This document shows, piece by piece, positions 34,654 to 61,737 of a stretch of 64,000 nt of DNA (position 1 is the stretch's first letter; the number at the start of each line of letters is the position of its first letter). The notes beneath the pieces were generated by a model that was not told the DNA's origin, did no database searches, and saw only the letters and a program-made list of their open reading frames with translations. This stretch comes from an uncultured virus (IMG/VR IMGVR_UViG_3300028048_000131). Taxonomy: Duplodnaviria; Heunggongvirae; Uroviricota; Caudoviricetes. A program made the position numbers and the translations under genes. The stretch lies in the IMG/VR virus record IMGVR_UViG_3300028048_000131, one strand, 5' to 3'.

Positions 34654-34661
34654 CCAACCTG

Positions 34662-35993: not shown

Positions 35994-36004
35994 GTGTCAA
36001 CCTC

Positions 36005-37348
36005 TTACTCAATGAAATCTCCATAACGCTATCTATAACTAGTTCCGTTATTTACAGATCTGTTATAATATACCATTATCTACTGCTGCGTATTTATATC
36101 CGGATAAAGTAAAACAGGTCCGGTCGAACTGTATCGATAAGCAACAACTATAGTACCGACAGCACTGTTATCCACTATAAATTTAATCGCAAGCAGTATG
36201 TCCTTCTAATTAGCAGGAGGGGTCATAATAAGTACTCCAGAGGCCCCCCATACAGTCTAGAAAATATATTTAGCCGGATTAAGACTGGCAGGTAGTGTGG
36301 CGTAAGGTACTTTATTATTTGCAGCTCTCTATAAACATAACTGCTTATAAGGCAAGCTGAAGTTACCGCCAGGGGAGTTTCTTAAAGGCAGTATATTGTT
36401 AACGATATTGTAGTTACTGTTATCAGCAAACAATATGCCCACATCAGTAAGTACATGCAGCCCAGGAACCTAAGCGGGGAAGCCTGTAATATTTGTATAT
36501 ATTGCAGGGTAGCGCAGGCCGAGCGAGTCCGAGCAATCCCCTGAAAACAGCTTTGTATCCTACTCTACAAATGCGTGGTTCTTGACCAGGAGCTTTCCTT
36601 TGCCTTTAAATGTTTTATCTCCTATTTTTATCTAAGAACCCTGAGTGGAGGCTATTCCACTAACAGTAGAGTATGTACAGCCTGCCACTGCTCCTATAAG
36701 CCGCTTTACATCTCTTTCATTAGCTCCGTTTTGCTTTATGCTCCAAGCTGCCTATACGGCTCCCGGATATTTCCATAACCATTCCTTAGGCAGCTCTAAA
36801 ATACCTGTAAAGCGATCCATACAGGAAGCGAAGTGTCTGTAAACGCCCCATAACTCATAACATTCTACCAGCTGTCCTTTAACAATAGCGAGCGTTGTGG
36901 TAAGTCCCTGTTGTGACAATGGAATATTAAACTCTATAACATCCCTGTCAGGATAATATACAAAATCTTTTCCCTCCAACAGCTTCTTACTCTATTTCGA
37001 TACGCCAAATTGAAACCACTAAGGAGTCTAAAAATTCATTAAGGTTGTGTAAGCAACAAGAGAGTCCGACTGCCCTATAGAATCTGAACCGCCTATATAC
37101 AGATCAGCTATTTTTATTGTACCTGTATCGGCTTGTCCTGCAACCAGAATTCTTACAAAGCTATACTCTTCGGGCTAAAGCAGGGATTGACACAATATCT
37201 GGTCATTTATAGCCTATAACCTGGCTGTAAGATTCTTTCCAACTAAAAATGAAAAGAAATTTATAATAGTCTATATCAGCCACGAGTCTCTCCAGACACT
37301 CATCCAGAAGAAACCCAATATAGCTTTTATTTCTTTACTCCAGTTCAA
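36005..37348 (-). CDS. putative baseplate wedge protein (TAG-recoded)
   Basis: TTG start overlapping upstream TGA; contains ORF 36752..36979; follows the baseplate J-like gene. Confidence 0.6.
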
Positions 37349-38892
37349 GAAATCACCTATAATGTAATAAATTCAGCTGTTGTAGAGAAGAAATAAGCTT
37401 GTGCTGCCCAGAGGTAGCTCTACTTACGGAAAAGAAGGTTAGCCACTCCGTCTGTAGTATTAAAGGTATAGGACCCTCCGTTGGTCATCGGAAGTTCTAC
37501 TGAAAGTATATAAGGAAGTCTTAACCGTATTCCAGGATAGACACTCTACAGCTGCTCTGCGATCTAGTCCATGTTAAGGTTATAGTCGCCTGCTAGCTTA
37601 GAGTTTATTTTATCTGTTATAAACTGTCTTATCTAAGTTAATTCAGTTTCAGTAGGCTATGCTGTAACATGCAGCTGGCACTTTACTTTTACAGTAGCAG
37701 GGACAGATGCCTTTACCAAACAAGACTGTCCGAGATATCTGCCATAAGAGCTGTCCATATAATCCTGCAGGGCTTTTATATCAGGCATAAACTACAAGGT
37801 AACAAGCACAGGATCCGCGGAAACCAGCGAATCAAAAACAATTCTTATTTGCTGATAGCTGGTATTTCTGGCTCCTATATCTGACACGGAGGGCTAAGAT
37901 GATTCATAGTAAACAGTGTACCTGCCTATTGAGGTATCCTATCCTTGCCTTACAACAGTGAGTACCCTGCAAGCGCCCGCTACAGTTGGATAATCCGCCG
38001 GAGTTAAACAAATATAGTATTTATTGTTCTCCCCCAGGGCTGGCTATATAAGGAGCTGTGTTACAGAGTTCTGGTTGGCTGTTTTCACGTAAACATCTAC
38101 AGCCCCTCCAGAAGGGAGTGCCAGATTGTTGTATCTGTCTCTGAAGCACCCAGGTTGCGCCGAACCAGAAGCATTGCAGCTTATTACATTCACAGGAGCA
38201 TCCTGCATCTTTGTTCTTATTGCCTGCAACGTGCCTATGGCAGAGCCGCACCTTTGTTTACATCGGACCATCATCTAAGCATCTGTCTAGGTACTTGATC
38301 CTCCAGTAATGGGAGACAGCAGCTCTGCAGACTGCGCACCAGGAATGTAAGAACCGATGGTCACCTACGTTCCAGCAGGTATCTACAAAGTCCCCGGCTA
38401 GACAGCTACAACAGGAACATTTACCTTATAGCTGTCTCCTATTTGAAAAGTTTTTATATAACCAAGAGTATCCGTATCTTCTCCAGGAGCTAAAGTGGCT
38501 ATATAGGTTTTTGCTGCGGCAAAGGAGTGTCCGTCTACAACAAACCCAGCTCCATTGTTTATTCTGGTCTAGGATATATTGCAAGTCAAAGTAACTATTC
38601 CCGTTGCGTAGTCTCCTTGTTTTCTCTGCACAAAATAGTTGCTGGCAACCAGATCTGCTGTAGAATTGGAGGTCTATGAAGATTGTGATAAGTAAGCAAC
38701 AGAAGTTCTCCGCAGCCAGTTAGAAACATATTCATCTATTTTTGCATATAGATAAGCGTAAGGACGGATAAGCAGCTCTCTTACAACAGATCCTTTTTTA
38801 GTATCTATCTACTGGGAGTAATCCAGCATAAGGTTGGTAAGTGCTTCCTACGCCTGTGTAAACTTGTCCTGTGTAGGCCCGTTTAAAGTCAT
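37345..38892 (-). CDS. baseplate J-like protein (TAG-recoded)
   Basis: IDTKKGSVVRELLIRP, ASNYFVQRKQGDYATGIV, GGAVDVYVK; 515 aa. Confidence 0.75.
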
Positions 38893-39251
38893 GTCAGCGC
38901 TCCTGTATACGATACCCCGTCTACAAGTGTCAGGGTAATAGTTAAATGTCCATCAACCGCATTAGCCTATAGAGATTTTATTTTCTAAGCATCTTCTTGT
39001 GCCAGTTGGTTTTTTACTTGTCCGCAGGCGAGTGTCCCTAAAGATATAAGTATCTAATCCTGAGGCGTATTAGATCCCTACAGAAGCTTTATCAAAGGCG
39101 CTCCTGCAGATACCCTATAAGGAGCAGTATCTGAGCTCAGTATAAGAACAAGGATTTTTTGATAAATACTCAGCCCCTCTGAATAAGTTTTGCCCAACAC
39201 AGAGGGTGAGATTGCTTGTGTCTTAGGTTCTGTAATAAGCATGTCCTTCAT
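38889..39251 (-). CDS. gp25-like baseplate protein (TAG-recoded)
   Basis: 120 aa, GLSIYQKILVLILS, directly upstream of the J-like gene. Confidence 0.55.
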
Positions 39252-39649
39252 ATATAGGCCTTTCCCAGCTCCTTGTTGGCATACGCTTTATACAGCTGCT
39301 CCTGCATTGCTCCCAGCAGACGTGACTATCTGCTTTGCTGCGTGTAAATAATATCTCTATATATCCTTAAATTCTAAAATAGCGAACCTCCCATACGGGC
39401 GATTTTAGCAGCATCTTTATTCTTAGCTGCGTTTTGCTGTCCAAGATACTTGTTTATAGCCTACGTGAATAGTTTGTCCGCCTATGTAATATAAAGGTCC
39501 TGTAAAGACTAGTAAGAAGTGGTCTTTTCTGCCAAAAAAGACTATGTATTCTGTTTTATTATATCAAACAGCTATGAGACTATCTTCTAGTTCATAGCTT
39601 TTCTTAACAGTCCGTTACTCTGCTAAATACTTATCAAGTCTTTATTCAT
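39248..39649 (-). CDS. hypothetical protein (TAG-recoded)
   Basis: TAATG and ATGA overlaps at both ends; 133 aa. Confidence 0.65.
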
Positions 39650-40425
39650 TACAGCAACCCCCTGACTTGTCCAAGCATCTACTGTATCTTAGCTTTTCTT
39701 TGAGATACAGCACCGGCGCTTAAATGAAGCTTAGCAGCTATTTCATTGTTGGAAAGAGTCTTTTTACCAAACCCGGAAGACCACTACATTATCTTTTGAT
39801 CTACAGGAGAAACAGAATCATACACGTAGTCGTAATAATCTTTATCGCTTATGCCGGAGTCCCCCATTCTCTACGCACCAGTTTCAGGATCATTAGTAGC
39901 GCTTTGGCTTACGGTATAAATGGAGTTGTCACGGAGTTTCTCCAGTTTTTTTCTGGACAGTCCTGTGTAGTCACTCAGCTACTGATCAGAAGGTTCTCTT
40001 CCCAGCTTCTCCTACAGGTCCGCTGTTTTCCTGTCCAGCATCTGTTTAATATATACTTGTGACTAAGGTATATGAATTGGATTCTAACGCTCTCTGCGAA
40101 TGCGGTTCAATCTTTGCAACCCTGTAAATACATATGTAGTCGGAGATGTGTTTTTAGTCCTGTCAAAACCTTTCAAAGTTTCCAGCGCAAGCGAAGTTGC
40201 TTTTAAACGGAAGGAGGCTTCCTGTCCCGGTACATATGAATGCAAAGCGCTCTATATAGTAGGCTTAAGATACTATAGGACTTTTTGGGTGTTCTATGGA
40301 GTATTGTTCTTCTGCCACAAAGAAACTACATCATCTTGCTGTACAGCAGGCTGCTGCTTTACAATAATAGTTTTGGCGTCTCTCTTAGGGAGATCTCCTT
40401 TTATAGCATCAAAAATACTGGGCAT
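39649..40425 (-). CDS. sigma70-family RNA polymerase sigma factor-like protein (10 in-frame TAG)
   Basis: GFDRTK...TYVFTGLQRL, IHIP*, L*EKLGREPSDQ*LSDYTGLS (region 3), SNNEIAAKLHLSAGAVSQRKAK (region 4 HTH); 258 aa. Confidence 0.75.
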
Positions 40426-40427
40426 AA

Positions 40428-42083
40428 TCAACTCCGCTTATATATAAAGCCCTTATCGTTATCTTTACCTGCAAACAAATCTTTCCCTGGCGCATCCTTT
40501 GCAGTTACACCTGATAGAGTACAACTTAGGCTGATGACGGATTTGGCTGTAGGGGTTGTTGCTGCCTGAAAAGCATATCTGACACCCTGCAGTCTGCCAT
40601 AAAAATCATAACCGGACTTACCCAGTTGCGCTGCCTATACCGGCATCTAAAATTCAAGGCTCTACCCTATATACTTATCTAAATTAAGTGTATTATCGTT
40701 AACAGCCAGAGATATTTCCGCGTTTCTATCCAGCATGTAAGTATGGAAGAAAATAGTTTTTGCAAATGCATTGAGGGTCTATAAGTACTTTTTAAAGTCG
40801 ATATTTCGTCTCTAACTCTGTTTTTTATTCTCTTTAACTTTATTCAGGGGCTGGTTTTTCAGTTCTGTTTTCTTGTTCTAGGTTTTATTCTAACCTTGAG
40901 TATCGCTTTCCTGAAGTGTATTTAACAGCCAATCCGGCACATCCAATACTTTAAGTCTATATGGAGGCTTCGCGCCGGTGGTGAGTGCATACTTGCCGAA
41001 AGCCTGACTAAAGGTGTTTCTGTCTTCGGCCTTCTAATAGGCTATACGCAACTTGCTTCTGGTATATATAAGATTAGGTGTTCTTATATGATCCAAAGCA
41101 TTACTGCTTACAGTGCAGGCGAGCATATTTTCAGGAGTAAGCTTAAATTCCTTATTGACCGGTTGTATATAAGCAGGGATTATATTTAAAAAATCCTCTC
41201 CGGAGGCAATGGAAGACGGTGAAAATGTTAAGTATCTGCCGTTTCCTTCTATACTGCTTGTTATAGCATCCAAGATAGTAGTGCTCCAGAAGCCGTTTAT
41301 CAGGTCACCTATGAGTCCCTACACATAAGGATGTATGCCGCCCACCACAGCATTTGCCAGAGTATCAGCCAGCTTTAAATTACATTTAAAATAACCATTC
41401 TCTTTAAGGTCAGGTGCTTCTCCCAGCTACTCTATTTTTTCTTTTTTAAAGTTGGTCTTTTGCCATGCATGTAAACTTTTAAGCGCTTTATCCAACATCT
41501 CAAGAATGTTGTCTTCAGTCTTAATACTAAATTCGCTGTGTTGTATAATATCTGGTATAGAGGGCCGCTGAGACGCAGCATAAAGAGCCTAGTTTATGCC
41601 ACCCTTTTTAAACACACCCATGGACTATAAATAAGCAATATCAGAAGCAAACTGATGTGGGACATAAATAAAATCTGTAAAGGGCTGATATAAAAGCTAA
41701 CAGGCCTTTCCCATGCAGTAGCACTGCATACCGGCGTTGACACCCTATGCTGCTCTCAGTGTAGGCGTTACCTCGCAAACCTTTCCTAGAAACCATACAC
41801 GCTGCCCGCTTTTACGATACTAAATCAGTTTTACATCAGAGAGCTTTCCTACACCCTAATTTTTCTGGCTGTTATCAAATAACGTCTTAATGCTGCCCAA
41901 TTGCTGTGGATAGGAGGATGCATTATAATTGATAGCCTGCGTCATATCGCATACATCCGCCGTCAGGCTGGTTATCATACCTATCCCTTTAGACAGCTAA
42001 AACGATGTTACAGCGTAGTTATCCTTATTATCTACGCACAGTATAAAGGCACCTATATCGTAAGCAACTATTTTTTCACTCAT
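40428..42083 (-). CDS. putative baseplate hub protein (TAG-recoded)
   Basis: 551-aa frame containing ORF 41034..41273; function from position only. Confidence 0.55.
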
Positions 42084-42532
42084 TTTTGCCGGGTACCGAA
42101 TATAGTTAAAGAGACGGTGAGTATTCCAGGTATATTGCTGGACTATTGTGAGAGTGCGACAATAGTTCCTTTATATGCCTATTTACCAATGGTTATATCA
42201 AGGAGCTTGGACTATGTTCCTGTAGAGGAGGCTTTTATAGTATTATAAAGCTAAGCAATAGACTTGATATTATCCTTATTTGTACAAGGTGTGTATAGAC
42301 TGCGAAGCCCCGATAAACTTATTACAACTGGAAGGTCCTAAAAAGTTACCAGATTAAAGTTGCCTGAGAGCGTTTTTGCCAAGCTGAAGTCCACCTGCTC
42401 GGTAATTTTGATTCCGATTACAGGTGCCTAAGCAAAAGTAGTTCCTACAGCAGGATTTGTTATGGTTATACATTTATACCCAAGCTGTACATCGGAGAAC
42501 ACCATACTCGGTTTCTAAAAAAGTTTTGTCAT
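42080..42532 (-). CDS. putative tail tube initiator-like protein (TAG-recoded)
   Basis: 150 aa directly after the tape measure, ATGA overlaps. Confidence 0.5.
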
Positions 42533-45132
42533 TTGCCTCCTCCTTTGTCAGAACCAATACCAGTGCTCTGGTTCTTGGGTTTGAAATCTTTCTAGAAGAA
42601 TCTTATCAGTCTCTAGAATAATGTGACCAAAGTTCTCTGGAAGTCCGCGGTTGTTCCGTAACCGGAGGAAGTTGCTCTATAGGCGCTTCTGAAGTCTTCA
42701 TAACTAAGAGCGTTTGGTCCGGCCTGCTTCTTGTACTCCTATTCAGAAAGTTTGTAAAGTTCCTAGGCTTTTTGACCTTTTTGACCTTCTATAGCCTCTT
42801 TTAGCCACTTGCGCTGCTTCTCGTTGGCCTATACACCGAGTCCCTACCAGTCTAACTTAGAGAAGCTCTAAAGTCTACGCGCCCTCGATACCTAGGTTTT
42901 CAGTTTCTCTGAAGCACCCGTTTTATCTTTATTTTTACCATACTCTTTAAGCGCGTCCGTTAGCTTCTGCTTTGCTTCGGCGTTCTTAAACTAAGTCTTT
43001 CCAAGAACTCCGGTACGGCGTGCCTAAATATAACCAATATCTTCATCGCTTCCATTTCCAGAAGCAACTTTTTGTATACTATCAATAAGTTTTTTATCCT
43101 TGCTTCCTTCATCACTACTCGCCATAGCAAGAATATTCTAGGTATTTTCTTTGAACTTAGCGCGGAGATTTCCTATTCTCTCCGCAGCTCCTTTAGCGAC
43201 AGCAGTCTAGGTAACACCCAAAACGGCTCTTGCCTGGGCTTCAAAAGCTTTATCAGAGATACTTCGACCGTTTACTTTCACTTCCTTAAGATTAACACCT
43301 GCCGGACCAGATGCTGCCTGAGAAACCGCTCTCCAGAAAGATAGAAAAGCTCCTGTTCCTCCGCTATCCAAGTTTTGATTCTCATCACGAATCTCGTTCT
43401 GACTGTTCCTAAACGCTTGTTGCTATAGACTGGTTGCCCAGCGGGTACCGGATTGATTCATCCCTCCGCTATTAATGAAGAATTGCAACGCTCTTTCATC
43501 CAGGTTATTTTTCTTTGCAAAGGCTTTAACGACATCCGCATCACCGCTATTTGTTAACAAAGCCTTTATCTAGCTGGCTTTTTTCTAATTAGAAAATACT
43601 GCATATAGTGGACTCCAGGCCTACATGGAGATACCCATGGCCTATCCTCTCTGAGCAAGACCTGCAATAGATGAGCGTAACCGGGAACGATACTGCTACT
43701 CAACACCAAGCTATGCCAGTCTACCAGACTGCAGGGCTTCTCTATAACCTTGTGTAGTAAGTCCTCGCATAAGAGACTGCGTGCTTCCTCCAGCCCTTCC
43801 TGTAGCAGCCATTACTATAGCCTCGGTAGTATTCATGCCTTTCTATGCACGCAGCTGCCGGATATACTTCATATAATCATCTACGGTTTTATCTTCATTA
43901 CGCTACTTCCACAGGCCATACCCCATAGCAGCCATATCTATACCTGTAGATGCTTGTGCAGATGCGATAGACCTCGCCGTACTTCCGGCGTACTAGACAG
44001 CAGATACTCCGGCAGGTGTGTTTCCCTGTGCCAGCAGAGCAGAATAATATCCTCCTGTCCAATTGGCACCTACACGAGAAAAAGTGTTGCCGCCAAGCGC
44101 TGCAGATTGGGTGAATATCTTTTGTCCTGCTGCGGCTATCTGTGCTACTGTAGCTCCTGAATAACGAGCCATGTCTGCAGTACTTGTAGCAATAGATTTT
44201 ATCAACGAAGGAGATAGCTGGTTGATATTTTGTCCTGAGACCGACTGAATCATATCGGTCATAGCCTTTATGTCTTCCCCGAAGATATCCTTAAGAGGAG
44301 CTAAGGCTTGTGTGGTCTACTGGACTTTTTTCTGGAAACGAGTAATAGATTCCTTGATATTTGTAGGATCAAATACCTAGGAGGCATTAGCCATAATACT
44401 AGCAAGCTAGGATACAGAAGCGCCGCTGAAACCTCCATAGGACTCGCCGGAGCCTTGTCCAAGCTGCCAACGGTTAGCCGCTTTAGCCATATCTACTACA
44501 CTAGTGCCGATAAGCTCTGCATTCTTTTTCTGGGAGAAAATATTTCTTGGCTACTTTCTCTGCTGATAGTATAAATATCCAGCCTGAGTGTCTTTAACTC
44601 CCTGCATAATACGCTAATTCTTAGCTGGGTCAAAGGCAAACTGAAGCGCAGCTGGAATAGATATAGCATTTTCCGTAGCTCTCTTTACCTAGGCCTGTAG
44701 CTCTGCCTAGGAAGTGGTTTCCGGCATTGTAAGCTTATAGTAATTCCTATAGAACTACTCTCTAAGCTCTTTCTAGCCCTGCTCTCTGCTGCTCTATAAA
44801 GCTCTTTGCAGTTGTCTGCGCTGCATTATTTGACTGGCATTGGCATAGGTACCTGAGCTTGGAGACAAAAAGCCTGAAAGAGTATTATGCAGTGTACCAG
44901 TCTTATTGAAATCCCTGCCTACAAGATAATCCGAAGCAAAGCTGCCCACAATAGGCCCAAAGAAAGGGCCCAGCAAAGAGGTTGTCGCGGAGTTTATTTG
45001 TCCTCTAGCCTGCTATATGAGTGTGACAGGGCCCTATTGAATACTCCCATAGGACATCCAGGGCTGCCTGTTAGGCCCTCCCCTGAGACCCGTAAGCATG
45101 GAGATTAACTGGAAAACATCAGCTTCATTCAT
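42529..45132 (-). CDS. tape measure protein (TAG-recoded)
   Basis: 867-aa Ala/Gly/Gln-rich helical frame containing ORFs 44794..44976 and 43993..44262; follows frameshifted chaperone. Confidence 0.7.
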
Positions 45133-45457
45133 TTATAGATTCCTTACTCTCCTATACGGGCTGTTCCTAAAAGGCTTTCAATGCTTGTTCATAAAGAGCC
45201 TGTGCGTCCAGTTTCCGCACCTATGGCTAAGCACCCAGTAACACACTATTGATATTTTTAATATTATCTGCCTATTTCTTATTAAAGGGACGCAGATTTA
45301 TGGAGCGCTAGATATAATTACTCTAAGTAACATCCAGCAGCAGCTGAAAGGCCTGGAAGTTACTTAAAGAGGGCTGTCTTGCGTATCTTTGTATTATTCT
45401 ATAGGTATCGTTCTGCTGGGCAGCTACGATCAGTCTTGAACGATACCCTCGAAAAAA
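45125..45457 (-). CDS. tail assembly chaperone, -1 frameshift extension (TAG-recoded)
   Basis: T TTT TTC slippery heptamer at 45457-45451; the -1 frame FRGYRSRLIV...ESKESINE stays open to TGA 45125, overlapping the tape measure start. Confidence 0.7.
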
Positions 45458-46008
45458 CTTTTATCGAAGCCACTTTCCAACATAAGCTCATAGAACTTCA
45501 TATGCTTATATACAACTGCGTCTATAACGGACTTCGGCAAAGCAGTTACATGTTCAGGATCAGTAAGCACATTATAGGTGTTGTCCAGCCAGACTTTATC
45601 TGATACATGTAAGGGCAGCTCCTTCAAAATTGCCCTGGTAAGCGCCTTAATGTCTTTTTTAACAGGAGTGTCTCCGGCAATCTCAATAGTTACCACAGGT
45701 AAGAAGGTATATAACTTGCTTATAACCAACTGAAGCTTATCCTTAGTCTCGGGGTCTTGTACAGTATCCTGTTTCAAAGAGGCCAGCAGCATGGTATCCT
45801 TGGTCTGCTCATCAAGATCTGCAACAGTTATAGTTACAGTATTATTATATAAGAAGTATGTCTTGGTATACATTTCTCCGGAAACGATGGAAGCAACATA
45901 TCTATCCAGATCTACCTGTTTTACTTTTACAGGTTTCTCCAGTGTAAGCTTCCCGCAGCAGGGACAAATCACAAATTCCTGTTTCTGTTCTTTAGTTTCT
46001 TCCGGCAT
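45430..46008 (-). CDS. tail assembly chaperone
   Basis: AGGAG RBS, MPEETKEQKQEFVICPCCGK; upstream of tape measure, with slippery site near its end. Confidence 0.7.
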   Translation of the reverse strand: MPEETKEQKQEFVICPCCGKLTLEKPVKVKQVDLDRYVASIVSGEMYTKTYFLYNNTVTITVADLDEQTKDTMLLASLKQDTVQDPETKDKLQLVISKLYTFLPVVTIEIAGDTPVKKDIKALTRAILKELPLHVSDKVWLDNTYNVLTDPEHVTALPKSVIDAVVYKHMKFYELMLESGFDKSFFEGIVQD

Positions 46009-46009
46009 T

Positions 46010-48532
46010 TTAATTCTCCTTTTCTGTGTATGTTTTATAGGCACCGTTTATATTGTTCGAATATAGCGGTTTAAAAGTTTCCGGATCAAGTTCAAGCATA
46101 TTGCAGCCTCCCTCCCATCCTTGTTTACCCGGATAAGAGTACGTCATAGCTTCTTCATTTCCAGTAGAAAAAGTTGTTATGCTCTATAAAAGTTTATATC
46201 CGTCTGGTACAGACAGCTGCCAGCACATAGTTGGCATATGTTCTGCTGTCCAGCCTTCTTGGAATTTAAACTCTTTGGTGCAGATATAGTCATCCGTATA
46301 CCAATCCTGCAGATGCTGCGCGTAAGTTATGGGAGGACTCTACAAAGTCTCTCTGAACATCCTGTCAAGCTGCTTATTAAAGCGGGTAAGCTGTTGCGCA
46401 TCTGTACCAGGAATCTCTTTCTTGGCTATCGTACTCAGCACCATATAATCTTTACCCTGTATTTGGCCTCCTGCAACAAGCCCTCCTTTGGCTGTAATAT
46501 CTCCACTGCTCTGAATAGCTCCTCTGACATGTAATATAGTATTGCCGCTGCCCCCGGCTATCGTTATTGTCTTCTGTTCTGTCAGCCCAACTTCTATAGT
46601 ATATGTATCTTTGAAATTGCCCAGGAATAACAGACTGGAGTTTATATTTGTAGCTGGTGCTATTATAGTTATATCCTGTCCTCTCAGTTGAATCCCAACT
46701 CCTTGGTCTTCGCCGCAGGCATAGATACCAGTTTGTTGTCCAGTAAGTCGCAGCTATTCTTGTGCCTACAAGCGCAGGATCTGCCCTTCAATAAATATAG
46801 AGCCTTCTCCTGTAGAAGCTGCTGCTCCCTTGTTCTAGGTCCTCTTATCGTTAATACCTATATGCATGTCTTCAGAGGATGTTAATGTCAGCTTCCCGTT
46901 GCTTCGAATAACCATGCCGTTATTTATATCAGACTCTGTAGATCTGTTCTACAATACGGTATATCCATTTTCACCATTAATGGCAGAGGCAAGTATAAGG
47001 TTCTGCTAAGCACCTGCCCTGATATTCTTTTTAGAGGCTAATTCAATCTCTCCGTTAGCTGTTGTATTGCAATGCCTGGGAACTATTTGTATAAGATCTC
47101 TTCCAGGGCGGATAAAGGTATCTAAAGCACTGGAAATATAAATGTTCCCGTGGCTCATGGTTATCTGGCTCCCCCAACCATCCTTCAACGTTATGCTTCC
47201 ATCGGGGTCCTGTGTAATAAAAGAATGGTTATTATATCTTTTGGCGCTCTTTTTAGTAAGAGGATCCTATGTCTATACAAAAGGATAGTCAGATAGGAAC
47301 TAGCCGACTTGTATCTAGTTATCCGGGAAGGCCATAAAATCACTGTAAGGAGCAGGGAAAGGATCTAATTCCTCGTCTATAAGTTCCTATACGGTGCTGC
47401 CCAGCATATCTTTGATTAAGGCCCTTGCATCTATCTAAGTAAGAACAGCCTACAGCTGCAGAGCCTTCTATATACCGTTATCACTGAAAGTAACTTTTTC
47501 CAAGTTCTATAGAGTAACTCTGGCACGATCTTTTCTACCAGTCAGCTCTTCCTCTTTCTATGCAGGTGAAGAGGGCAGTGGCTGCTAAACTATCCCTGAT
47601 ACCTATGGAGTTTTAATGGACATATGTCCTTGTACAGACAGATGCAACTTAGAGCCTTCATAAGATGTCATATCGGAGGCTACTACAGGAGAGGCTTCCT
47701 CGTTCGACTGTAAAGGACTTACTATAGTCTAGCAAAGCCCGTTTACGACGCCCCCGCTGAACTGCTGTGCCCTGAATAAAGGAGGAAGTATCTGTTCGGA
47801 AAACTCCAGCTTTAAAGGATCCTTATTACTTTGTTTGATGTCCAGCGGCTTTTCTTTCCAGGCCCTTCCTCCGATCCCCTCTAAAGCTCCTGAGGCCTTA
47901 AGCTGCTTATTTATTTTTGTAGAGATTGTCTGTTTATCGCTAAGAGAGTCCAGTTCCGCTTGTATGGTGACCGTAGTTATTTTGTCCTACAATGCAGACA
48001 TAGAGATATAAGAAGCAGGGGAGCCTTTGACAGTTAACTGGGCTCTTCCTACAAAAATGCCGCCTCCATAGCGTTCCCCCATATAAAGGTCGCCCTAGAA
48101 CTGGTCCTCTTGCCCTCCAACAGAAGTAGCATGCTCTTTACCTCTGTTGGTACGCTCTATTTCTCCTAGTATATTGTCCAGGAATCCTGTGTTGCTTATA
48201 CCAGGAATACCCTAGTGGGAAGTCAGCTTATTGGTCTAAATAATGCCCTGCGGCTAGGTTCCTTGCGGGTTATAAGCAACGGCGTAGTATTTATCTGTGC
48301 CGGTTTCTCTTCGATAGGTCACTAAAGTGCCTGCTACAGGAGCCTAGACTATACTAGTACCAAGAATGCCCCCACAGGATTTCAATCTACAGATAATGGG
48401 TGGCTGTCCTTGGTTAGAGCCCGCGGGAAGCACCAGTGCCCAGCCCAAAGAAGGAAAAGCTGCCTGTATTACACCTGTATATAGAGCGGAATCGAGAAAC
48501 TGCTATTTTCTCTATTGTATAGTATCTGCCAT
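46010..48532 (-). CDS. gp5/VgrG-like baseplate spike protein (TAG-recoded)
   Basis: 840-aa frame with N-terminal OB-fold-like segment and beta-repeat region (TLKDGWGSQITMSHGNIYISS). Confidence 0.6.
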
Positions 48533-48544
48533 AAGTCACCATAT

Positions 48545-48577
48545 AAAAATGCGTCTGCAGAAGCCTACAGACGCATT
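48545..48577 (-). terminator. intrinsic terminator after tail tube gene
   Basis: AATGCGTCTG/CAGACGCATT stem plus T run on minus strand. Confidence 0.65.
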
Positions 48578-48605
48578 AAAGGAAAAACAAGTATCTTATT
48601 TAAGG

Positions 48606-49163
48606 TTACTGTATACCAGTAAGTGCGCGTGCAAGGTTTCCTGTTGTACTTCCACCATTTGAAGCACTGGACTTCCAATCAAAGTCGTCGAAGATAGCTG
48701 TAAAGATACCCTGAGCGATTGTTAACGCACCTTGTGTAGAAAGTGAGAAACGTACACCCTGCCCAAAGCAGCCTTTTAAGGTCAGTGTTTGCGGCTGAAT
48801 CTACTTCGCATCTTTGCATTTAGTTTTATCTGAAGTACTGGTAGCTATTTCGAGCCAAAAGGTAGAACAAGCCGAACCAAACTCAGTTAAAAAGGTATCT
48901 ACAACTGAGCCGGGACCTATAATGGTCTACAGCTGTACGGTGCCGGTCGGATGACCAACAAGTTTAATCGGCGTTCCGCCGCTTAGCGGATAGCGGGTAG
49001 AAACGTCTCTGGTAAAATTAATTGTTACACCCTAAACAGCCGCTAAAATAGCCGCGTCCACCTTAGTTTTATTTTTGCCTTTTAGCATTTTTACAGATGC
49101 GGACTGCAAAGACCATACTTCAGGCGTTTTATTTTCATATGGATTCTGAAGAACTTGTGGCAT
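48606..49163 (-). CDS. putative tail tube protein (3 in-frame TAG)
   Basis: GAGGTG RBS; 185 aa immediately after the sheath; V*GVTINFTRDVSTRYPL...GTVQL*TIIGP. Confidence 0.7.
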
Positions 49164-49171
49164 ATATCACC

Positions 49172-51220
49172 TCAACGCATATAGAAAGTTATATGGAATC
49201 TGTTGAAAGGTTTGGGCGGTTCGCCTTCTACCTAAGCATAGATACGATCTTTATAGACCTAATCCTGTTTGATAGATATAACAGATCCGGAAATCAGCTG
49301 CGGGCCAATATAATCATCTACGTATTCCATGAACTTATCAAGTTTATAGTTAAGCGTAGATTCCAGCAGATCGATCATCACAGGAGAAATGTTGGTGTTG
49401 CCAACCAGGTCCCGACCGGTTACTTTCAGAGAGAGCCCGATGCTGTCGATATCGCAGACAATGGACTGCTCATCGTAATTAACATCACCAGAGGCTACTG
49501 AAGTAAGCTGTCTGCGGCTGATGCAAGTACCATCTTCCCTCATACCAACACGCCAGAAACCGGCAGCACCGAGTTTACGGCTCTGAGAAGCTGTAAAGCC
49601 GTGGGCTTCTGTAGTTGTAATTGCTTTCATTGCAACGTTGCTGAGCGGTGCATGCGGATAGGTACCGGAGCGTTTACCTGCAAGAGCTGCTGCAACACAG
49701 TAGTTAGGAACAGCCATTGTGCTGTTGTACATAGCACCGTCTGCGATAGCGAAGCTGCAGCGCTTATTGGCAATATCTTTCCAAGCAATAATGGACTCGA
49801 TAATATCGGCATTATCAGAGAGTGTCTTATAGATTTCGACAACATCCGAAGCATCCAGTGTAGCACTGTAGTTACCCTGCAGCCAGATAATGTTTTTGTG
49901 GTTGGAGCTGTCGATAACAGCTTCGTAACCACCGCTATAACGGAAGATATCTCCGCGAACGATTGTTCCAACCTGCAGCAGAGGACTGCCAGTAAAAGTA
50001 ACACGGGTAAGGCTGTTGCTGGCTTCATAAGCAACCGAAGCAACGCTCAGAGAAATTCCGTTTGCAGGAAGAACAAGTTCTTCTGTCGGGATCTCTTTGC
50101 TGGCATACAGATACTTGAAGTAAGGAATCTCTTCCTGGGACTGCTTTTCAACGAACTGAAGAAGAGCCGCTGTAACTTCTTTATTATCTGTACACGGAAC
50201 AATGCCGTAGATACCGTCTTTATCTGCGATAAGATCAAGAGCTTTGCTATAAGCTTCGACCATAGCATCTGTCTCTTCCGGATCGCTTTCCAGTGCCACG
50301 AAGTAAACGAAGTTTCCTTCCGACTCTTCAACAGCATTCGCAACAGCGATTCCCAGCGGATTTTCAGGACAAACCTTTCCAAGAAGGTCTGCAACATAGT
50401 CCACATCAGCCACCTGTCCGTAGATCTTAGTGAACTTATCTGAGCGTACACGGTACTCAGCGTAGAAAGCGCCAGCTGCAATCGGATACTTTACAGCTTC
50501 GCCATTACCAAGAAGATCAAGTTCTTCGGATTCAGCGCCTGCTGCAACAGTAATATTTTTATCCCCGGCTGTAATGCTGTCAGCACTGACATAGCAGTTC
50601 ATTACCTTATAGAACTTAACTTCAGCAATAGAGGCACCTGCAGGGAAAGTTTTGGAAAGTACACACTTAGTATATTTTCCGTTGGAATCCTTCAGGAATC
50701 CGATTACGGTACAAGAAACAACAGAGCTGTCAGAATCATCCAGAGTAACTTTGGCAACGTCACCTTCCAGAACCGGAACGGCAGTTACCTCAGCATAAGG
50801 ATCTTTGAAGACGACTTTTGTGCCGTTCAACTTAACGGTCAGTGTATCATCCCCATCTGAGAGTTCAAATACAGTAGCAACAGAATCAGAACCATTATAT
50901 GCTCTGAATTCAAGCTCTGCGTCACGAACCAGAACTTTCGCGCCATACTTGCTTACATGGTCCACAATGTTGTCAGAACCTGCCCGAGCAGGATAAGGAC
51001 GAACTGTGAGCCCTTCTGCTTCAGTATAGACCGTGTTGTATTCAGAGGCAGGGTAATTGTCAGCGCTGTCAAGACGAAGCGCCTCACCGAAATCCTCATA
51101 CTTACGCACAATATAATGGGGCCCTATTACACATGCTCCAAGAGTCGGTACAGTTCCTGCTGCGGAAGCTTTGTAGACCTGGTTCAAGGTAACAATAGGA
51201 TCACTATAATTTGCAATCAT
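49172..51220 (-). CDS. tail sheath protein (2 TAG near the C-terminus)
   Basis: ACVIGP, NPLGIAV, YGIVPCT, YCVAAALAG, ISRRQLT; read-through adds D*VYKDRIYA*VEGEPPKPFNRF to TGA. Confidence 0.82.
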
Positions 51221-51233
51221 AATTGTTTTTCCC

Positions 51234-51887
51234 TTATTGGTTAATAGTTGTCAATCCCAGCCCCCGGAAAACCGGACCTTGCGTATCGTGTGTCCAGCTC
51301 AATACACTGGAAGCTGCGACTGAAATTTCGCTCATATATACTTGTTTAGCGTTTCCCATCTGTCCATTAGGCACCGGTTGAACGGCACTTACCTGCATAA
51401 CTGCTATGGAGCTGATGTTGTTGCAGTCACTTTGTATCGACTAGCTGTTCATCATCAAAAACGTCTATATCAGCTACGCTAATAAGATTGTTCCGTCATA
51501 ACTCTATGTAACTACAGACACTATAACAGGGATCTGCTTGATCCTCCACTACAGATTAGGACTTGCCATAGGATTCCTGCCGAACTAGGGATTACCTCCT
51601 CTATTGACAGGTCTGGCCATATAGGATATTTCTCCAAGACTTATTATAATAGCTGGAGTAGTTCCCTAATATCTCTTGTCAGGAGAAAACGCACATCCGA
51701 CTTTTACACAGTCCTTATTGAGATTCCCTTTTGGATCATACATAAGGGAGACCAGTCTCTAATCCTTGATGTTCCGACTGTCGGCAAAGAAGTTGTTAAG
51801 AATATCCTTTATGTACTTGACAACCCGGCTCTGCTGTCCGAAAGCATCAGGAAGAGTACTTTTTTCTGTATAATCAGTAAGATTCAT
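51234..51887 (-). CDS. putative tail completion/terminator protein (TAG-recoded)
   Basis: 217 aa directly upstream of the sheath, ATGA overlap. Confidence 0.55.
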
Positions 51888-52708
51888 TCAAAGGCCTTCT
51901 TCCACTAGTCACCGCTTATGAAAGCTTCCTGTAAAACCTGTTGTGCTCTTGGAGTGTGAAGCACGTCGGAAAGCTCTAATAGGTGCATCTTCAACTGATA
52001 TATAAGCGGCACATGCTTGAATTTGGAAGCTATATCAGCTTGCTCTATATAAAACCGCTGATCAGTGTTATCATCTACCCAGACATCCCCGAGTTCTATA
52101 ATGGGCCAGGCTGTACACTTAGCCTGTAGTATCACAGATTTGGTGCTCCCTATCTGCTGTATACCCTAATTGGAACTCTATCCTACCTATAATATATTCA
52201 TAGGAATAGCTCTGTAATAGCCACCCTTGATGCCTGTTCCAAGACACACAGGACAGTGCTAGTTCACAGGAGAGTCATCCTAGAAGTGCATACAGGCAGG
52301 GCACTTCTAGCCATAGATGATCTTCTTCATAAGATATCCGGTGCGGCCTGTTTTCTACATCTAAAGCTAGCTGAGACGAATAAGATTGCTTGCCTAGGAA
52401 CTATATGGATAGCTCAGAGTGATCCCTGCCTGCTGGGGCTAAGAATAGTACTGCTGACCGTCCGCATTCATTCTAACTCTGTAGTAGTCGTTATTGTATT
52501 TGTTGCGGTTGGTTCTTCTATTATCTATATAACAATAGCTTACAGGCAGGCCCTCTGCTAAAGTCTACCACGTTCCACCACTGCGAGCATATTCTACTGA
52601 CAGTAAAGTGTCCTAAGGCAGTGTTATTCCTGCGTCGAACTACCAGGAGAGCGCCCTTGAATTATTGGCCAATATAAATACTTTTAAAGCTTTGAACGGA
52701 CTGGACAT
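51884..52708 (-). CDS. putative neck protein with zinc finger (TAG-recoded)
   Basis: CPVCLGTGIKGGYY motif; contains ORF 51905..52135; 274 aa. Confidence 0.6.
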
Positions 52709-53613
52709 CAATGCCACCAGCGCTAAGTACTTTCAAGATAGATATCAGAGATGCTTCCCATACACTCAAGCATATTCAGCTAGCTCTTTTTAGTCTGCAC
52801 CCAGCTTTTCCATTCTTGCAGGGCATTCTGAGCGAGCTGCATGTACATCTGTCCCTTGTCATTATCATCGTAAGTGAGACCTGCGTTGGCATGTCTCATC
52901 TGGTTTCTCATATATCTGTAAGAAGCCATCTTGAAGAGATAACCCGAAGCTCCTGTGCAAAGGTTGCTTCTAAAAGGAAAAGTAGAAACAGTAAGATTCC
53001 TGGAAAGCTGAGGAGGCATCTAGTTCCAGTCCTGTACTGCGCGGTCCATGCATCTGGCAATAACGATGTCTGAGAACTAAAGGTCATTGAGGAGCTAGTT
53101 CTGCTGGCCTGAAGTGTCATACATCTACATTCTTACCTAAGCAATGGTAAGCGGCCTGAAGCCACAAGGGCACGGACTCGCCAGGGAATGCTCTATCTAA
53201 AGACAGCATTTAAAGATATGTCTGAGAACTCCGTCCTAGTCCCTGCACTGGAACTAGGCATAGTGAAGCCCCTAATTGCATTCAGTCTGCTAAGGGCCCA
53301 GAGAAAAAGTTACTTTTCCATTACCCTGATACTAACAGGGAACTTCAAAAATATAGCAGCCTCTGTTCTAAGCAAGACACGCCAATTTTACATTATCAGT
53401 AGAATATAACTCTGCGGGAATAGTTCCCTACAGATCTTGTGTAAGCTGTACGATAAAGTCCGCAGTAAGTCCTGCAGTAGTTCTTATTACAGGCACTCCA
53501 TAAGAAGAAGCTGCATGTCCGGTGGCCGCTTGGGAAGCCTGCCCGTCGGCGCCTCCACCGCCCCCAATACCGCCAGCTCCTGGAGTTGCTTCAGGTATGC
53601 AAATATCAGCCAT
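52708..53613 (-). CDS. putative head-tail adaptor (TAG-recoded)
   Basis: TIA*VRM*MYD...N*LLNDL*FSD...WN*MPP...RYMRNQM; joins ORFs 53428..53613 and 52780..53019. Confidence 0.65.
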
Positions 53614-54921: not shown

Positions 54922-54949
54922 TTGACTTTTAGGTACAGTGATGTAAGAT
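54922..54949 (+). promoter_or_regulatory. second sigma70-type promoter upstream of the tRNA
   Basis: TTGACT-N16-TAAGAT, shares GATGTAAGATAA with the previous promoter. Confidence 0.6.
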
Positions 54950-55078: not shown

Positions 55079-55152
55079 GCCCGGGTCGTCTAAAAGAAGG
55101 ATACTGCGCTCTAAACGCGGAGATTGGATTGCAAAATTCCAGCCGGGTACCA
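55079..55152 (+). tRNA. amber suppressor tRNA (anticodon CUA), tRNA-Glu-like body
   Basis: Acceptor GCCCGG/CCGGGT plus ACCA, D stem GTCT/GGAT, anticodon stem CTGCG/CGCGG with loop CT-CTA-AA (55111-55113), 4-nt variable loop AGAT, T stem TGGA/TCCA; atypical D and T loops. Confidence 0.85.
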
Positions 55153-55162
55153 AGCAATTTAC

Positions 55163-55223
55163 AGAGGGCTAGAGAGTGCAGCTCGAAAACCTGTTCCCTA
55201 GCAGGCCGCCCTCTTTCTTTTTT
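55163..55223 (+). terminator. branched hairpin with U-tract between tRNA and endonuclease
   Basis: AGAGGGC/GCCCTCT closing stem followed by TTCTTTTTT. Confidence 0.55.
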
Positions 55224-55254
55224 CACCTAGGGAAGTAACAATAGGGAGTTATTT

Positions 55255-56457
55255 ATGACACCACAAGAAGCCTGTAATTTTCCACTCGATCTAGAGAATC
55301 ATTATGGTTACGTATATTGTGTAACCTTTCCTTCCAGTAAAAAGTATATAGGACAATCCAAGCGTCCCTGGAAATACCGTTGGAAGTGTCACCACTCGGA
55401 TACATCGTTTTGTCCTGCAATGAAAAATGCCTTGCAAAAATATAATACAGAAGAGCTCGTCTGGGAACTTTTGTGTTATGCGGATTCTCCACAAGAATTA
55501 ACGGATAAGGAAACTTATTATATACAAAAACTATCCACACTCGCTCCTGGAGGATACAACATTTCTCTTCCTTGTAAGGCTTATCCATACCCAGAAGAAA
55601 AAGCAGATAGGATCCGGTTAGGTCTTGCTCTACACCATTTACGTAAGACTAATTCTGACGCTACTATAGAAGACGCCAAATATTATATTGCACACAAGGA
55701 CGACAAGCCTCCTAAATTAGAGAAAGGCTCTCCGGAGTGGATAGAGAAGTATAGAATAGCCACAGAAAAAAGAAGAGCTACTATGCAGGCGCGAGGTAAA
55801 AACATGAGTGATATCATGAAAAGGGTAGCTAAAGAAAAACCATCTATGAATCAAGGAATGTGTGTAGCTCTTATAGTATATGAAACAGGCGAGCAGTTCG
55901 AATCCATAGCGGATTTTTGTAATAAATATAACGTTATAAGTTCTTGCGCATCCTTTTGCTTACAGAAGAAGAATAAAGAAATAGGCGGAATGCATATCTA
56001 CCCGGCCTCCTGTACTCAAGAGGAATTGCAAGAGTATATAAAGTTCTGGAATGAGCCTAAAAAAGTTCCTAAAGGTATTCTTACCTGTGTTGAGACAGGC
56101 AAAACTTATAGAACGGCTAAAGAAGCAGCGGACGAGCTCTGTGTACTAAGAAGCAGGATCCACATGGCAACAAGGCGTAATTTACCTGTAAATGGATTTC
56201 ATTTTATATATGCCCCGGCTGTAGGCGTAAATCCTAATGGTGGAAAGTCTGTTAAGTGTCTAGAAACCGGTAAGATCTATACATCCCAAAGGGAGGCAGC
56301 TAGAGATATACTAAAGGTAACAGACGAGGGGAAAGCCAAGGCAGGTGCAGACCAGATAAAGAAAGTTATTGAAGGCTCACGTAAGGACTTCCATGGATAT
56401 CATTTTACTTATGTGGCTACAGGTTCACCCTTAACAATTTCTCAGGAGCTCCTCTAA
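55255..56457 (+). CDS. free-standing GIY-YIG homing endonuclease with NUMOD1-like repeats (no TAG)
   Basis: GYVYC..KKYIGQS..RW..H, ELTDKETYYI, GYNI; three ETG.Y/F repeats. Confidence 0.85.
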   Translation: MTPQEACNFPLDLENHYGYVYCVTFPSSKKYIGQSKRPWKYRWKCHHSDTSFCPAMKNALQKYNTEELVWELLCYADSPQELTDKETYYIQKLSTLAPGGYNISLPCKAYPYPEEKADRIRLGLALHHLRKTNSDATIEDAKYYIAHKDDKPPKLEKGSPEWIEKYRIATEKRRATMQARGKNMSDIMKRVAKEKPSMNQGMCVALIVYETGEQFESIADFCNKYNVISSCASFCLQKKNKEIGGMHIYPASCTQEELQEYIKFWNEPKKVPKGILTCVETGKTYRTAKEAADELCVLRSRIHMATRRNLPVNGFHFIYAPAVGVNPNGGKSVKCLETGKIYTSQREAARDILKVTDEGKAKAGADQIKKVIEGSRKDFHGYHFTYVATGSPLTISQELL

Positions 56458-58161: not shown

Positions 58162-58307
58162 GTGAACAAAAAGTTTGCGGAAAACGCACCGAAGTTTACT
58201 CTCGATAACGTATCTGTGGCTACTATCGTCCCGTTACCAACTGGAACCAGGGAAAGCGGGAAGAATTTAAAGATCGTAAGCTCTATAAAGTAAATGCCCC
58301 ATCCTGA
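58158..58307 (+). pseudogene. small NrdD C-terminal (glycyl radical)-like ORF interrupted by a 6-nt insertion containing TAA
   Basis: TEVYS-R-stop-RICGYYRPVTNWNQGKREEFKDR. Confidence 0.65.
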
Positions 58308-58719
58308 TACATTCTAGTACATTCCTAAGCCGGGTAACGGTTATGTGTACCACATAACCTCCGGCAAGAAACATTATATAGGTATCTCCACTACACCCTT
58401 CTCCAGAAGATGGGAACGCCATAAAGCTCCTGACTCAGGCTGTACAAAGCTTGTGAAGGAGCTTAATCGTCTTCGGGCTACAGGCAACTGGGCCCAACTT
58501 AATGTATAGATCCTCAAAGAAGCTCGTAATGCCCAGCTTGACAAGCTGTAGAAGAAGTACATAAAGAAGTATGCTTCTTATAAGAGCATCTACGGAATGA
58601 ACTCCACTCCGGGAGGTAGAGATGTCACTCCTGCCTCTATGCACATGAAAAAGCTCTTCAGGAGAACTAAAAGGAAGATTCAAAAGACCCAGGAAACTTT
58701 TTCCTGGGACCTTATATAA
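58294..58719 (+). CDS. GIY-YIG nuclease (3 in-frame TAG)
   Basis: GYVYHI...HYIGIS...RW.RH...NV*ILKE...LDKL*KKYI...GMNSTPGG; 141 aa ending TAA. Confidence 0.8.
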
Positions 58720-60714: not shown

Positions 60715-61737
60715 TCAGTTGCTTCCGCTTTCGCTATCGGAACCAGCCGGAATGGCATCGGTCCAGTAGGTTGCATTAGCAGCTTCGGCGGGATCTAGGC
60801 TGTAAGTAACCTTGCAGACACCAGCACGGTTGGCGATAACGCCGCCGATGGTTTCATGTGCGAAGAAGGTCAGCTCGATGTTGTCCTTTTCGTCAGTAAC
60901 CATATTAACATCTTCGTAGGTGTAGAACTTGCCGTAGAATTCCGGTTCGGTGAAGATCCACTGATCATAGTAATCACAAACGGTTTCCTTGGAGGTGACG
61001 AGGACATCCAGGCCGTTGAGTTTCTGATAGCGGACGCCATCGAACAGCATATCCTGGGCCATATCGCCGCCGATTGCATCGCGACCGAAGATAGCCATCT
61101 TGTTGTACAGGATTTCGTGCATAATGGACTTCGAGGCTTTCAGTTTGCCTTTGGTCAGAGCCATACCATCCAGACCGTTGGTGAAGCCGAAGCGGTCCCA
61201 GGGCTGATAGATAGCACGACGGACACCAAATTCGGCAATCTGTGCGGACTGATCGTTCCAGTCACCGACGATGGCCTGGTTTTCAGCATGCCAGGTTTCA
61301 TCTTCGACATCCATGATGTCTTTCAGCATCAGGTCGTACAGGATGTCCAGCATCGGCATCTTGTAGCCAGTCAGACGGATTTTGTCGATGTGATATTTCG
61401 GAGTCATGATCCGATTGAATTCACAACGCATTTTACGTCCGTTGAAGGTTGCTCCGGTGGTCGGGGCTTCGAAGGACACCATGCTGGCGCCTTCGGAGTT
61501 GAAGTCCAGTTCAACGATCATGCTCGGCAGATCGGAAACTTCGTTGACATCGAAGTCATCGGCAGTAACTTGTACCGGGGGAAGCAGTTTGCGGTAAACT
61601 GCATTCTCACGAATACGGGTACGGAAATAGGTGGTACCAGGCAGCCCAGCTGTCTTTACCATAGTAGAGTCATTGCTCAGGAGCTTGTCTTTGAATTCCT
61701 GATCAATAGCTTTAATCTGTTCAGAAGTGTAAGCCAT
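60715..61737 (-). CDS. major capsid protein (HK97-like)
   Basis: 340 aa, strongly C-ending codon bias, followed by a terminator; RIRE...RKLLPP, KDIMDVED, FFAHETIG; position after scaffold and decoration genes. Confidence 0.75.
   Translation of the reverse strand: MAYTSEQIKAIDQEFKDKLLSNDSTMVKTAGLPGTTYFRTRIRENAVYRKLLPPVQVTADDFDVNEVSDLPSMIVELDFNSEGASMVSFEAPTTGATFNGRKMRCEFNRIMTPKYHIDKIRLTGYKMPMLDILYDLMLKDIMDVEDETWHAENQAIVGDWNDQSAQIAEFGVRRAIYQPWDRFGFTNGLDGMALTKGKLKASKSIMHEILYNKMAIFGRDAIGGDMAQDMLFDGVRYQKLNGLDVLVTSKETVCDYYDQWIFTEPEFYGKFYTYEDVNMVTDEKDNIELTFFAHETIGGVIANRAGVCKVTYSLDPAEAANATYWTDAIPAGSDSESGSN

Follow-up and report, generated by a model that had tools for sequence, protein, structure and literature searches.

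The 64,000-nt stretch of phage DNA analysed here (the window) carries a real amber (CUA) tRNA gene at 55079-55152, and in-frame TAG in this phage almost certainly stands for glutamate, as judged from codon alignments. The tRNA gene is very probably the phage's own amber decoder, which would insert glutamate at UAG. Stop-codon recoding by phages is itself known; recoding of TAG to glutamate appears to be new among them, and the sequence evidence for this code is strong.

In-frame TAG in the window and its relatives

The window is part of the genome of a tailed cattle-gut phage, with genes for terminase, baseplate, DNA polymerase A, helicases, homing endonucleases and capsid. When TAG was read as sense, the coverage by long frames rose from 0.46 to 0.88. 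Among 62 hand-picked genes, 30 contained three or more in-frame TAG codons, two contained one or two and 30 contained none; all 30 TAG-free genes terminate in TAA or TGA. In-frame TAG made up 3.68% of the 9,528 codons of the 30 TAG-rich genes. No TAG occurs in the replication genes or in the capsid gene, and most other virion genes and three of the four homing endonucleases are TAG-rich, a split that recurs in the complete relative G002. The coding features that bear on the meaning of TAG are:

21148..22962 (+): terminase large subunit with 11 in-frame TAG codons (domain scan, homologue alignment)
25204..53613 (-): virion-gene block (baseplate, probable tape measure, tail sheath, head-tail), rich in TAG that is most probably read as Glu (TAG counts, Pfam, codon alignment); the sheath, tape-measure and head-tail labels are deduced from the order, size and composition of the genes
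4077..4769 (-): GIY-YIG endonuclease with 19 TAG codons, one of them in the conserved Glu column (Pfam, paralogue alignment)
58294..58719 (+): GIY-YIG endonuclease whose conserved Glu column holds TAG (Pfam, paralogue alignment)
55255..56457 (+): TAG-free GIY-YIG endonuclease directly 3' of the tRNA, with Glu where four paralogues have TAG (Pfam, paralogue alignment)
60715..61737 (-): TAG-free gene of the major capsid protein, the marker by which relatives were sought (capsid searches, tree)

The meaning of TAG was read from a codon alignment of the window with standard-code outgroups. Across 189 TAG columns in 48 aligned frames, the Glu reading led Gln by 30.8 log units and Asp by 57 log units, and as a control the same procedure assigned 59 of 59 sense codons correctly. 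This protein-column test is independent of the tRNA and agrees with the first-pass annotation, which had proposed from the tRNA that it is glutamylated and not amidated to glutamine. The TAG columns of the window behaved like its GAA and GAG columns; in the 46 columns that are invariant among the outgroups, TAG faced E 27 times and D five times, with Q outside the six commonest residues. Six relatives (G001, G002, L115, L118, L121 and L122) also gave Glu, by 27-175 log units (controls 54/55 to 59/59), the seven Glu-giving records representing about three lineages rather than seven independent cases. As a positive control, the same method returned Gln by 49 log units for the crAss-like phage G007; composition alone had been ambiguous for G007 and was set aside, the alignment settling on Gln. 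A candidate recoding of TGA in outgroups G003-G005 was rejected because TGA is nearly absent from the aligned genes (8 and 10 columns).

Composition pointed the same way in the window. The TAG-rich genes contain 3.51% E, 3.68% TAG and 4.46% Q, and the TAG-free genes 8.42% E and 4.15% Q; thus the TAG-rich genes are poor in Glu and not in Gln, and TAG fills the Glu gap. The conserved Glu of GIY-YIG endonucleases binds metal, and TAG occupied this column in four of five aligned paralogues. At the 11 TAG columns of the terminase, the commonest residue in distant homologues was E or D at eight and Q, F and A at one each; as counter-evidence, one of these columns carried Q in 75 distant homologues. 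When G002 and G001, both recoded, were the only relatives compared, TAG columns of the window met Q (11%) more often than E (6%), and the margin for Glu fell to 5.6 and 10.1 log units.

Several features of the window stand beside this pattern. The TAG-rich endonuclease at 4077-4769 sits between TAG-free pieces of DNA polymerase A (3392-4087 and 5009-6658), likely a split gene or an intron. The endonuclease at 55255-56457 is the only TAG-free one of the four homing endonucleases and is skipped in strain X4; since the gene at that place in L122 has 19 TAG codons, this copy may be a recent arrival. The capsid gene, its neighbours and the sheath gene (60715-63977 and 49172-51220), presumably the most abundantly expressed, have 0, 0, 0, 0 and 2 TAG codons, unlike the minor virion genes; the near-absence of TAG there fits a limited efficiency of suppression. 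Searching viral contigs with the capsid query alone gave no matches, and alignments were required to find relatives. In a search for a host through the capsid, a scan of species genomes gave just two loci at 32% identity and the Atlas viral taxa only.

The amber tRNA gene and its glutamate-like core

The tRNA gene and its immediate surroundings comprise the following features:

55079..55152 (+): amber (CUA) tRNA gene with the CCA end encoded, Glu-like acceptor stem, D stem and variable loop, and degenerate D and T loops (folding, hairpin filter, classifier, RNA-library contigs)
54922..54949 (+): sigma-70-like promoter match ~130 nt upstream of the tRNA (consensus match only)
54787-54814 (+): second sigma-70-like promoter match upstream of the tRNA (consensus match only)
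55162..55232 (+): structured G+C stem and U tract directly 3' of the tRNA (Rfam int-alpA, 39.9 bits, cut-off 35.8), likely a transcript end or the leader of the following gene

Folded by hand, 55079-55152 forms a cloverleaf with a 7-bp acceptor stem, D, anticodon and T arms and an encoded CCA end. The anticodon loop CU-CUA-AA stands on a 5-bp G+C-rich stem. The acceptor end has G1.U72, C2-G71 and A73, and U1-A72 is absent; the core has U11-A24, U13.G22, A46, G10.U25 and a 4-nt variable loop without residue 47. The gene also has the mismatches G7.G66 and U53.U61, lacks G18G19 and has the T loop UGCAAAA. Hand folding thus bore out the whole base-level description in the first-pass annotation, from the CUA anticodon and G1.U72 to the T loop.

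Standard detection barely registered this gene. ARAGORN called no tRNA anywhere in the 64-kb window, and at a relaxed threshold with introns its output was noise, so the list of hairpins and coding densities were used instead. The Rfam model RF00005 gave 28 bits (E 0.014 in an 8-kb search), below the 29-bit gathering cut-off, and the folding z of -0.91 was not significant. In a hairpin filter applied to the entire 64 kb, 55079-55152 was the sole CUA anticodon arm to pass. Contigs of two RNA libraries, both from a single other cattle-gut sample (X2 record 4, X3 record 13), span the tRNA with 0 letter differences, and its odd bases are therefore not an assembly error. These contigs do not prove transcription, because DNA can occur in such libraries, and contig depth in the RNA runs, which cannot rank genes, was not used as evidence of expression. 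The region upstream of the tRNA contains six sigma-70-like sites compared with 2.9 ± 1.7 in shuffled sequence (consensus matches only), and a similar promoter motif was seen by eye ahead of the amber tRNA of L122. Among 50,697 phage records BLAST found only weak, uninformative matches to the tRNA (best E 0.07, a Gordonia phage tRNA-Gln). In the TAG-recoded relatives an amber tRNA occurs in the matching gene neighbourhood.

We asked how Glu-like the tRNA body is with a reference of 1,421 distinct tRNAs harvested from the fetched viral loci and labelled by anticodon, in which Glu is over-represented because the set was pulled with a Glu-anticodon pattern. A naive Bayes isotype classifier was trained on 1,184 non-redundant tRNAs with the anticodon loop masked; beyond the first filter, training left out every amber tRNA as well as 113 rows that scored low or were redundant, and leave-one-out accuracy was 0.70-0.76. 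The acceptor stem, D stem and variable loop of the window tRNA scored +7.0 bits for Glu and -1.1 bits for Gln. This 8.1-bit margin was reached by 1 of 1,072 non-Glu tRNAs and 51 of 112 tRNA-Glu, and 6 of the 10 nearest neighbours, the top three included, were tRNA-Glu. When all positions were scored, however, Glu (-7.9) nearly tied with Val (-8.0), Met (-8.8) and Gln (-9.8), because the D and T loops fit no class; a D loop without GG occurred in just 47 of the 1,421 reference tRNAs, and the lack of G53-C61 in 20. The earlier description of a tRNA-Glu scaffold therefore holds for the acceptor stem, D stem and variable loop, but not for the body as a whole.

Single features separated the isotypes to different degrees. 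G1.U72 was found in 68 of 138 viral-contig tRNA-Glu and 1 of 74 tRNA-Gln, and U1-A72 in 9 of 138 tRNA-Glu and 37 of 74 tRNA-Gln. The combination of U11-A24, U13.G22, A46 and a short variable loop occurred in 57 of 138 tRNA-Glu, 8 of 74 tRNA-Gln and 1 of 105 other amber tRNAs. The D-arm motif alone, which had been taken as a mark of Glu, is indeed enriched (57 of 138 tRNA-Glu vs 3 of 74 tRNA-Gln), but it is insufficient on its own, as a Gln-reading crAss-like phage has the same motif.

The identity elements invoked earlier are as stated in PMC9976931: U11-A24, U13.G22.A46 and a missing residue 47 are core determinants for glutamyl-tRNA synthetase (GluRS), and U1-A72 is a determinant for amidotransferases (GatCAB). 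U34, U35, C36 and A37 are strong determinants of the Escherichia coli enzyme in the same source, and two of these four (U34 and C36) are missing from the window tRNA, as are both weak E. coli acceptor pairs (G1-C72 and U2-A71). Compared with bacterial tRNA-Glu (PMC9976931), the window tRNA shares U11-A24, U13.G22.A46, the absence of residue 47, U35, A37 and the absence of U1-A72; it differs in its anticodon (CUA, C34-U35-A36, rather than UUC or CUC), in having G1.U72 and C2-G71 where the E. coli tRNA has G1-C72 and U2-A71, and in its degenerate D and T loops. The evidence for the origin of the tRNA is moderate: its acceptor and D core probably derives from a tRNA-Glu that replaced an older suppressor, the alternative being convergence on a Glu core.

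Amber tRNAs and a short glutamyl-tRNA synthetase in relatives

Complete relatives of the window phage measure 164-192 kb. In G001, G002 and L122 a single amber tRNA was found, at the same position as in the window. In the G001/G002 type the T loop is normal and the acceptor end has G1-C72 and G73. G001, L116, L117 and L118 have this tRNA uninterrupted, whereas in G002 (L076:12580-12930, -), L115 and L121 a group I intron of ~270 nt (Rfam 31 bits, under the cut-off) divides it within the anticodon, after U35; splicing of the split amber tRNA could gate the code switch. In the G002 type a tRNA with a CAU anticodon stands just before the amber tRNA (L063 and L064, from G001 and G002), where the window has none. 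The L122 type lacks G18G19, carries G1.U72 and A73, and combines a 4-nt variable loop with an odd T loop of its own. All of the relatives' amber tRNAs have U11-A24 and U13.G22, and they are identical to the window tRNA at just 37-45% of positions. Their first classifier scores were Arg, Gln or Ile (L122 core: Ile 4.4, Glu 4.0). These relatives arrive at TAG=Glu through amber tRNAs of other builds, so a Glu body is not required across the clade. The code appears to be common to the clade, but the tRNA body is not.

The complete genome of G002 (TAG=Glu) encodes a PF00749 GluRS of 356 residues (L106:718-1788, -). The gene is TAG-free, lies at the edge of the TAG-free region just before the TAG-rich block and is ~70 kb from the amber tRNA. 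The first-pass annotation had suggested that a helper may be needed for charging, and for relatives this is borne out, in that one of them encodes a GluRS. The enzyme is absent from five of five near-complete standard-code relatives, and in G001 its position falls outside the stretch covered. No synthetase was found among the 46 window proteins scanned, and no release factor (PF00472) in any of five records, the complete G002 included.

The G002 protein is predicted to be a GluRS with a shrunken anticodon domain. Its structural model (pLDDT 91.8) matched GluRS with Z of 30-32, YadB with 22-24 and GlnRS with ~21, aligning over all 356 residues to GluRS and over residues 1-238 to YadB. It scored 203 bits on the gltX and 110 bits on the YadB models, under both cut-offs. 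The HIGH and KMSKS motifs and a helical anticodon domain are present, and the Zn region and part of the anticodon domain are deleted. The enzyme resembles Glu-Q-RS (YadB) in being a short GluRS paralogue with the glutamate site; YadB lacks an anticodon domain, whereas the G002 protein matches GluRS over its full length. The equivalents of Arg5 and Arg205, the glutamate-binding arginines of GluRS (PMC2978374), are kept, and the equivalent of Tyr187 is Phe. At the Arg column of the 'ER' motif (residue 350 of E. coli and, with the tag offset applied, of Helicobacter pylori GluRS1) His stood in 14 of 14 phage rows and Arg in 6 of 9 cellular rows of the alignment. We take this column to be Arg358 of Thermus thermophilus, the reader of anticodon position 36. 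A change of T. thermophilus Arg358 relaxed the reading of position 36 (PMC2978374), whereas the corresponding change in H. pylori had no such effect (PMC3927822).

The short enzyme belongs to a family of 13 database clusters (354-385 residues), which a quick tree sets apart from 34 cellular GluRSs by a single branch (SH-aLRT 99). A scan of viral contigs with GluRS profiles recovered the full short enzyme just in G002 (80 loci kept of 102), and a 50%-identity library held two representatives of the family. GluRS clusters share longest contigs of equal size with the capsid clusters P0136 (149,272) and P0141, the latter of the L122 type (182,515; 168,751; 180,967); this indirect but specific link ties the enzyme to two further capsid clusters, the L122 type included.

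Other genes of G002 were recorded in passing. At L080:17995-19741 and L081:1555-2697 these are a reverse transcriptase, a prokaryotic E2 of family D and ThiF, several DUF7666/pentapeptide paralogues and six TnpB genes of the IS605 type; two of the TnpB genes each carry a single in-frame TAG, at matching sites.

Charging of the amber tRNA and alternative readings

In the mechanism that we propose, the tRNA would be transcribed from a host-type promoter and loaded with glutamate by a glutamyl-tRNA synthetase, and would escape amidation for lack of U1-A72 (PMC9976931). In the virion and endonuclease genes of the window, the ~350 in-frame UAG codons would then receive glutamate. Since the replication and capsid genes avoid TAG, most virion proteins would be completed only once the tRNA works; the gene pattern is observed, the timing is our interpretation of it.

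For the loading enzyme we give an even chance to a host GluRS, best a non-discriminating one, regard a phage GluRS encoded outside the window as a serious but tentative possibility, and hold any other route to be improbable. If a phage enzyme is used, the code would be the same, the tRNA being loaded mainly by the short GluRS of the clade and its odd loops serving to avoid host synthetases. The TAG-free GluRS just ahead of the TAG-rich block of G002, its retained glutamate site and predicted GluRS fold, its family's separation from the cellular enzymes, the His in all phage rows and the two further enzyme-tied capsid clusters speak for such a dedicated pair, as does the capsid tree, in which the window falls within a 25-row clade (100/100) with the enzyme-tied lineages (the G002 row in this tree is cut to 41 residues at an in-frame TAG, and P0135 stands beside it at zero distance). 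On the other hand, no GluRS was seen in the 64 kb available for the window phage, 0 of the 12 rows of the window's own sub-clade are tied to the enzyme, and the enzyme-tied lineages are those without a clearly Glu-bodied tRNA. A 190,776-bp contig with the closest capsid and terminase relatives was absent from the contigs of the 11 fully listed GluRS clusters and from the matches listed for two large ones (15 of 74 and 15 of 500); a full-length phage GluRS would pass unrecognised among the cellular matches in this search for the short form. Together with the Glu-like tRNA body, this absence is a weak hint of charging by the host. Odd T loops also occur in the Gln, Tyr and Pro tRNAs of the standard-code relatives L005, L006 and L013, so that loose elbows may be a family trait.

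We picture, with about equal readiness to accept or reject it, a TAG=Glu family of cattle- and human-gut phages (170-190 kb) in much of which the code would be imposed by a dedicated pair of a miniaturised GluRS (Arg to His) and a tRNA(CUA). The tRNA body would thereby be free to drift, into at least three unlike forms, and the window's sub-lineage would either keep the enzyme or have given it up for a suppressor with a tRNA-Glu body, charged by a borrowed host GluRS. If this is true, the family would hold a second amber code of bacterial viruses and a ready-made orthogonal glutamate pair.

The nearest precedents differ in codon, amino acid or organism. The code-change module of Jade phages consists of TrpRS, tRNA(UCA) and RF1 (Borges preprint, 10.1101/2021.08.26.457843), and its TrpRS pair has been validated as orthogonal (PMC12636597). 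Like that module, relative G002 has its own synthetase, written in the standard code, and a suppressor tRNA; unlike it, the clade would pair GluRS with TAG rather than TrpRS with TGA, the enzyme (354-385 aa in the clade, with a shrunken anticodon domain) lies ~70 kb from the tRNA in G002, and no release factor was found there; this comparison is for the relative and not for the window's own phage. In ciliates, peritrichs read UAR as Glu, and one uncultured ciliate reads UAG as Glu and UAA as Lys (PMC11687900); there UAG=Glu, as here, but the code is eukaryotic, nuclear and genome-wide, rather than used in part of the genes of a bacterial virus. In the main texts consulted we found neither a phage nor a bacterium described as using TAG=Glu; such tRNAs or enzymes could be listed in supplements, for instance Table S1 of PMC12636597 or Table S2 of the Borges preprint.

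Glutamine is the only meaning that phage surveys, in their main texts, report or take for granted for recoded TAG, and one survey deems host GlnRS and TrpRS the sole easily hijacked enzymes. A glutamate code would break this rule, as the suppressor body or a phage synthetase could then set the meaning. A short GluRS with His at the anticodon-36 site would make testable how the position-36 specificity of GluRS can be redirected, and the amber GluRS/tRNA pair is a candidate for code expansion.

It is unlikely that TAG means Glu and yet the gene at 55079-55152 is a decayed or secondary copy, with another tRNA decoding. Two stem mismatches, the lost elbow bases and a score below the Rfam cut-off would suit decay, and ~110-130 kb of the genome lies outside the window; but the anticodon arm and CCA are perfect, the position is that of the single amber tRNA in G001, G002 and L122, and the L122 orthologue lacks these elbow bases as well, having lost them by another route.

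Even less probable is ordinary code 15, with the tRNA loaded with glutamine, by GlnRS or by GluRS plus GatCAB, and TAG meaning Gln. Where a phage's code differs from that of its host, the main text of the Borges preprint (10.1101/2021.08.26.457843) describes just TAG to Gln and TGA to Trp, and synthetases as rare. Of the phage amber tRNAs tested in E. coli extract, 28 of 29 gave Gln and one Ala, with 42 of 162 inactive (PMC12636597); PMC10607447 and PMC13037316 use TAG=Gln, and the main texts of PMC13695967 and PMC8629427 add nothing further on the meaning of TAG. The window phage resembles code-15 phages (crAss-like, Lak and Borges clades, 10.1101/2021.08.26.457843; phAss-1, PMC10607447) in its phage-encoded CUA tRNA, its gut habitat and the concentration of in-frame TAG in virion genes and its avoidance in replication genes. 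Unlike theirs, its TAG aligns with Glu, its tRNA has G1.U72, A73 and a Glu-type core, and its complete relative G002 is without a release factor.

Two results in our own data might be read as favouring glutamine. Of 652 strain substitutions 31 were tested, and the sole one at a TAG was to CAA, a Gln codon; and in close database homologues (the 15 nearest terminases) Q stood at 38% of the TAG columns, in mixtures of E and Q. At GAA and GAG columns of the window, however, the same homologues also had Q (27-42% of these columns); this suggests that TAG had been translated automatically as Q, and database proteins were dropped as a clean test. Against glutamine there also stand the DNA-level tests (with Glu in seven of seven clade records), the absence of U1-A72 and the undepleted Gln of the TAG-rich genes. 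The clade's database proteins P0001-P0015 were seemingly translated with Gln at TAG, with many Glu recorded as Gln; public protein collections appear to hold Gln for Glu at about half of the Glu sites in the clade's virion genes.

A pyrrolysine-type or other non-standard system is scarcely credible: the missing G18G19 and non-standard T loop resemble tRNA-Pyl, and ARAGORN labels CUA tRNAs 'Pyl', though by anticodon alone, but tRNA-Pyl has a 3-nt variable loop, a 6-bp anticodon stem and G73 where the window tRNA has a 4-nt variable loop, a 5-bp anticodon stem and A73, the TAG columns behave as GAA and GAG, and Pfam found no pyl genes among 46 window and 65 G002 proteins (partial sets).

Unusual tRNA genes were also seen in more distant records. 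Two crAss-like amber tRNA-like genes (L001:4990-5060, +; L002:4960-5045, -) combine an acceptor stem that appears bulged with a D arm of the Glu type and were missed by ARAGORN, and the crAss-like G007 (TAG=Gln) has, beside the one with the Glu-type D arm, a second amber tRNA with a long insert. A tRNA with a UCA anticodon was called at a relaxed threshold within a real tRNA cluster of a standard-code relative (L004:14837-14924, -).
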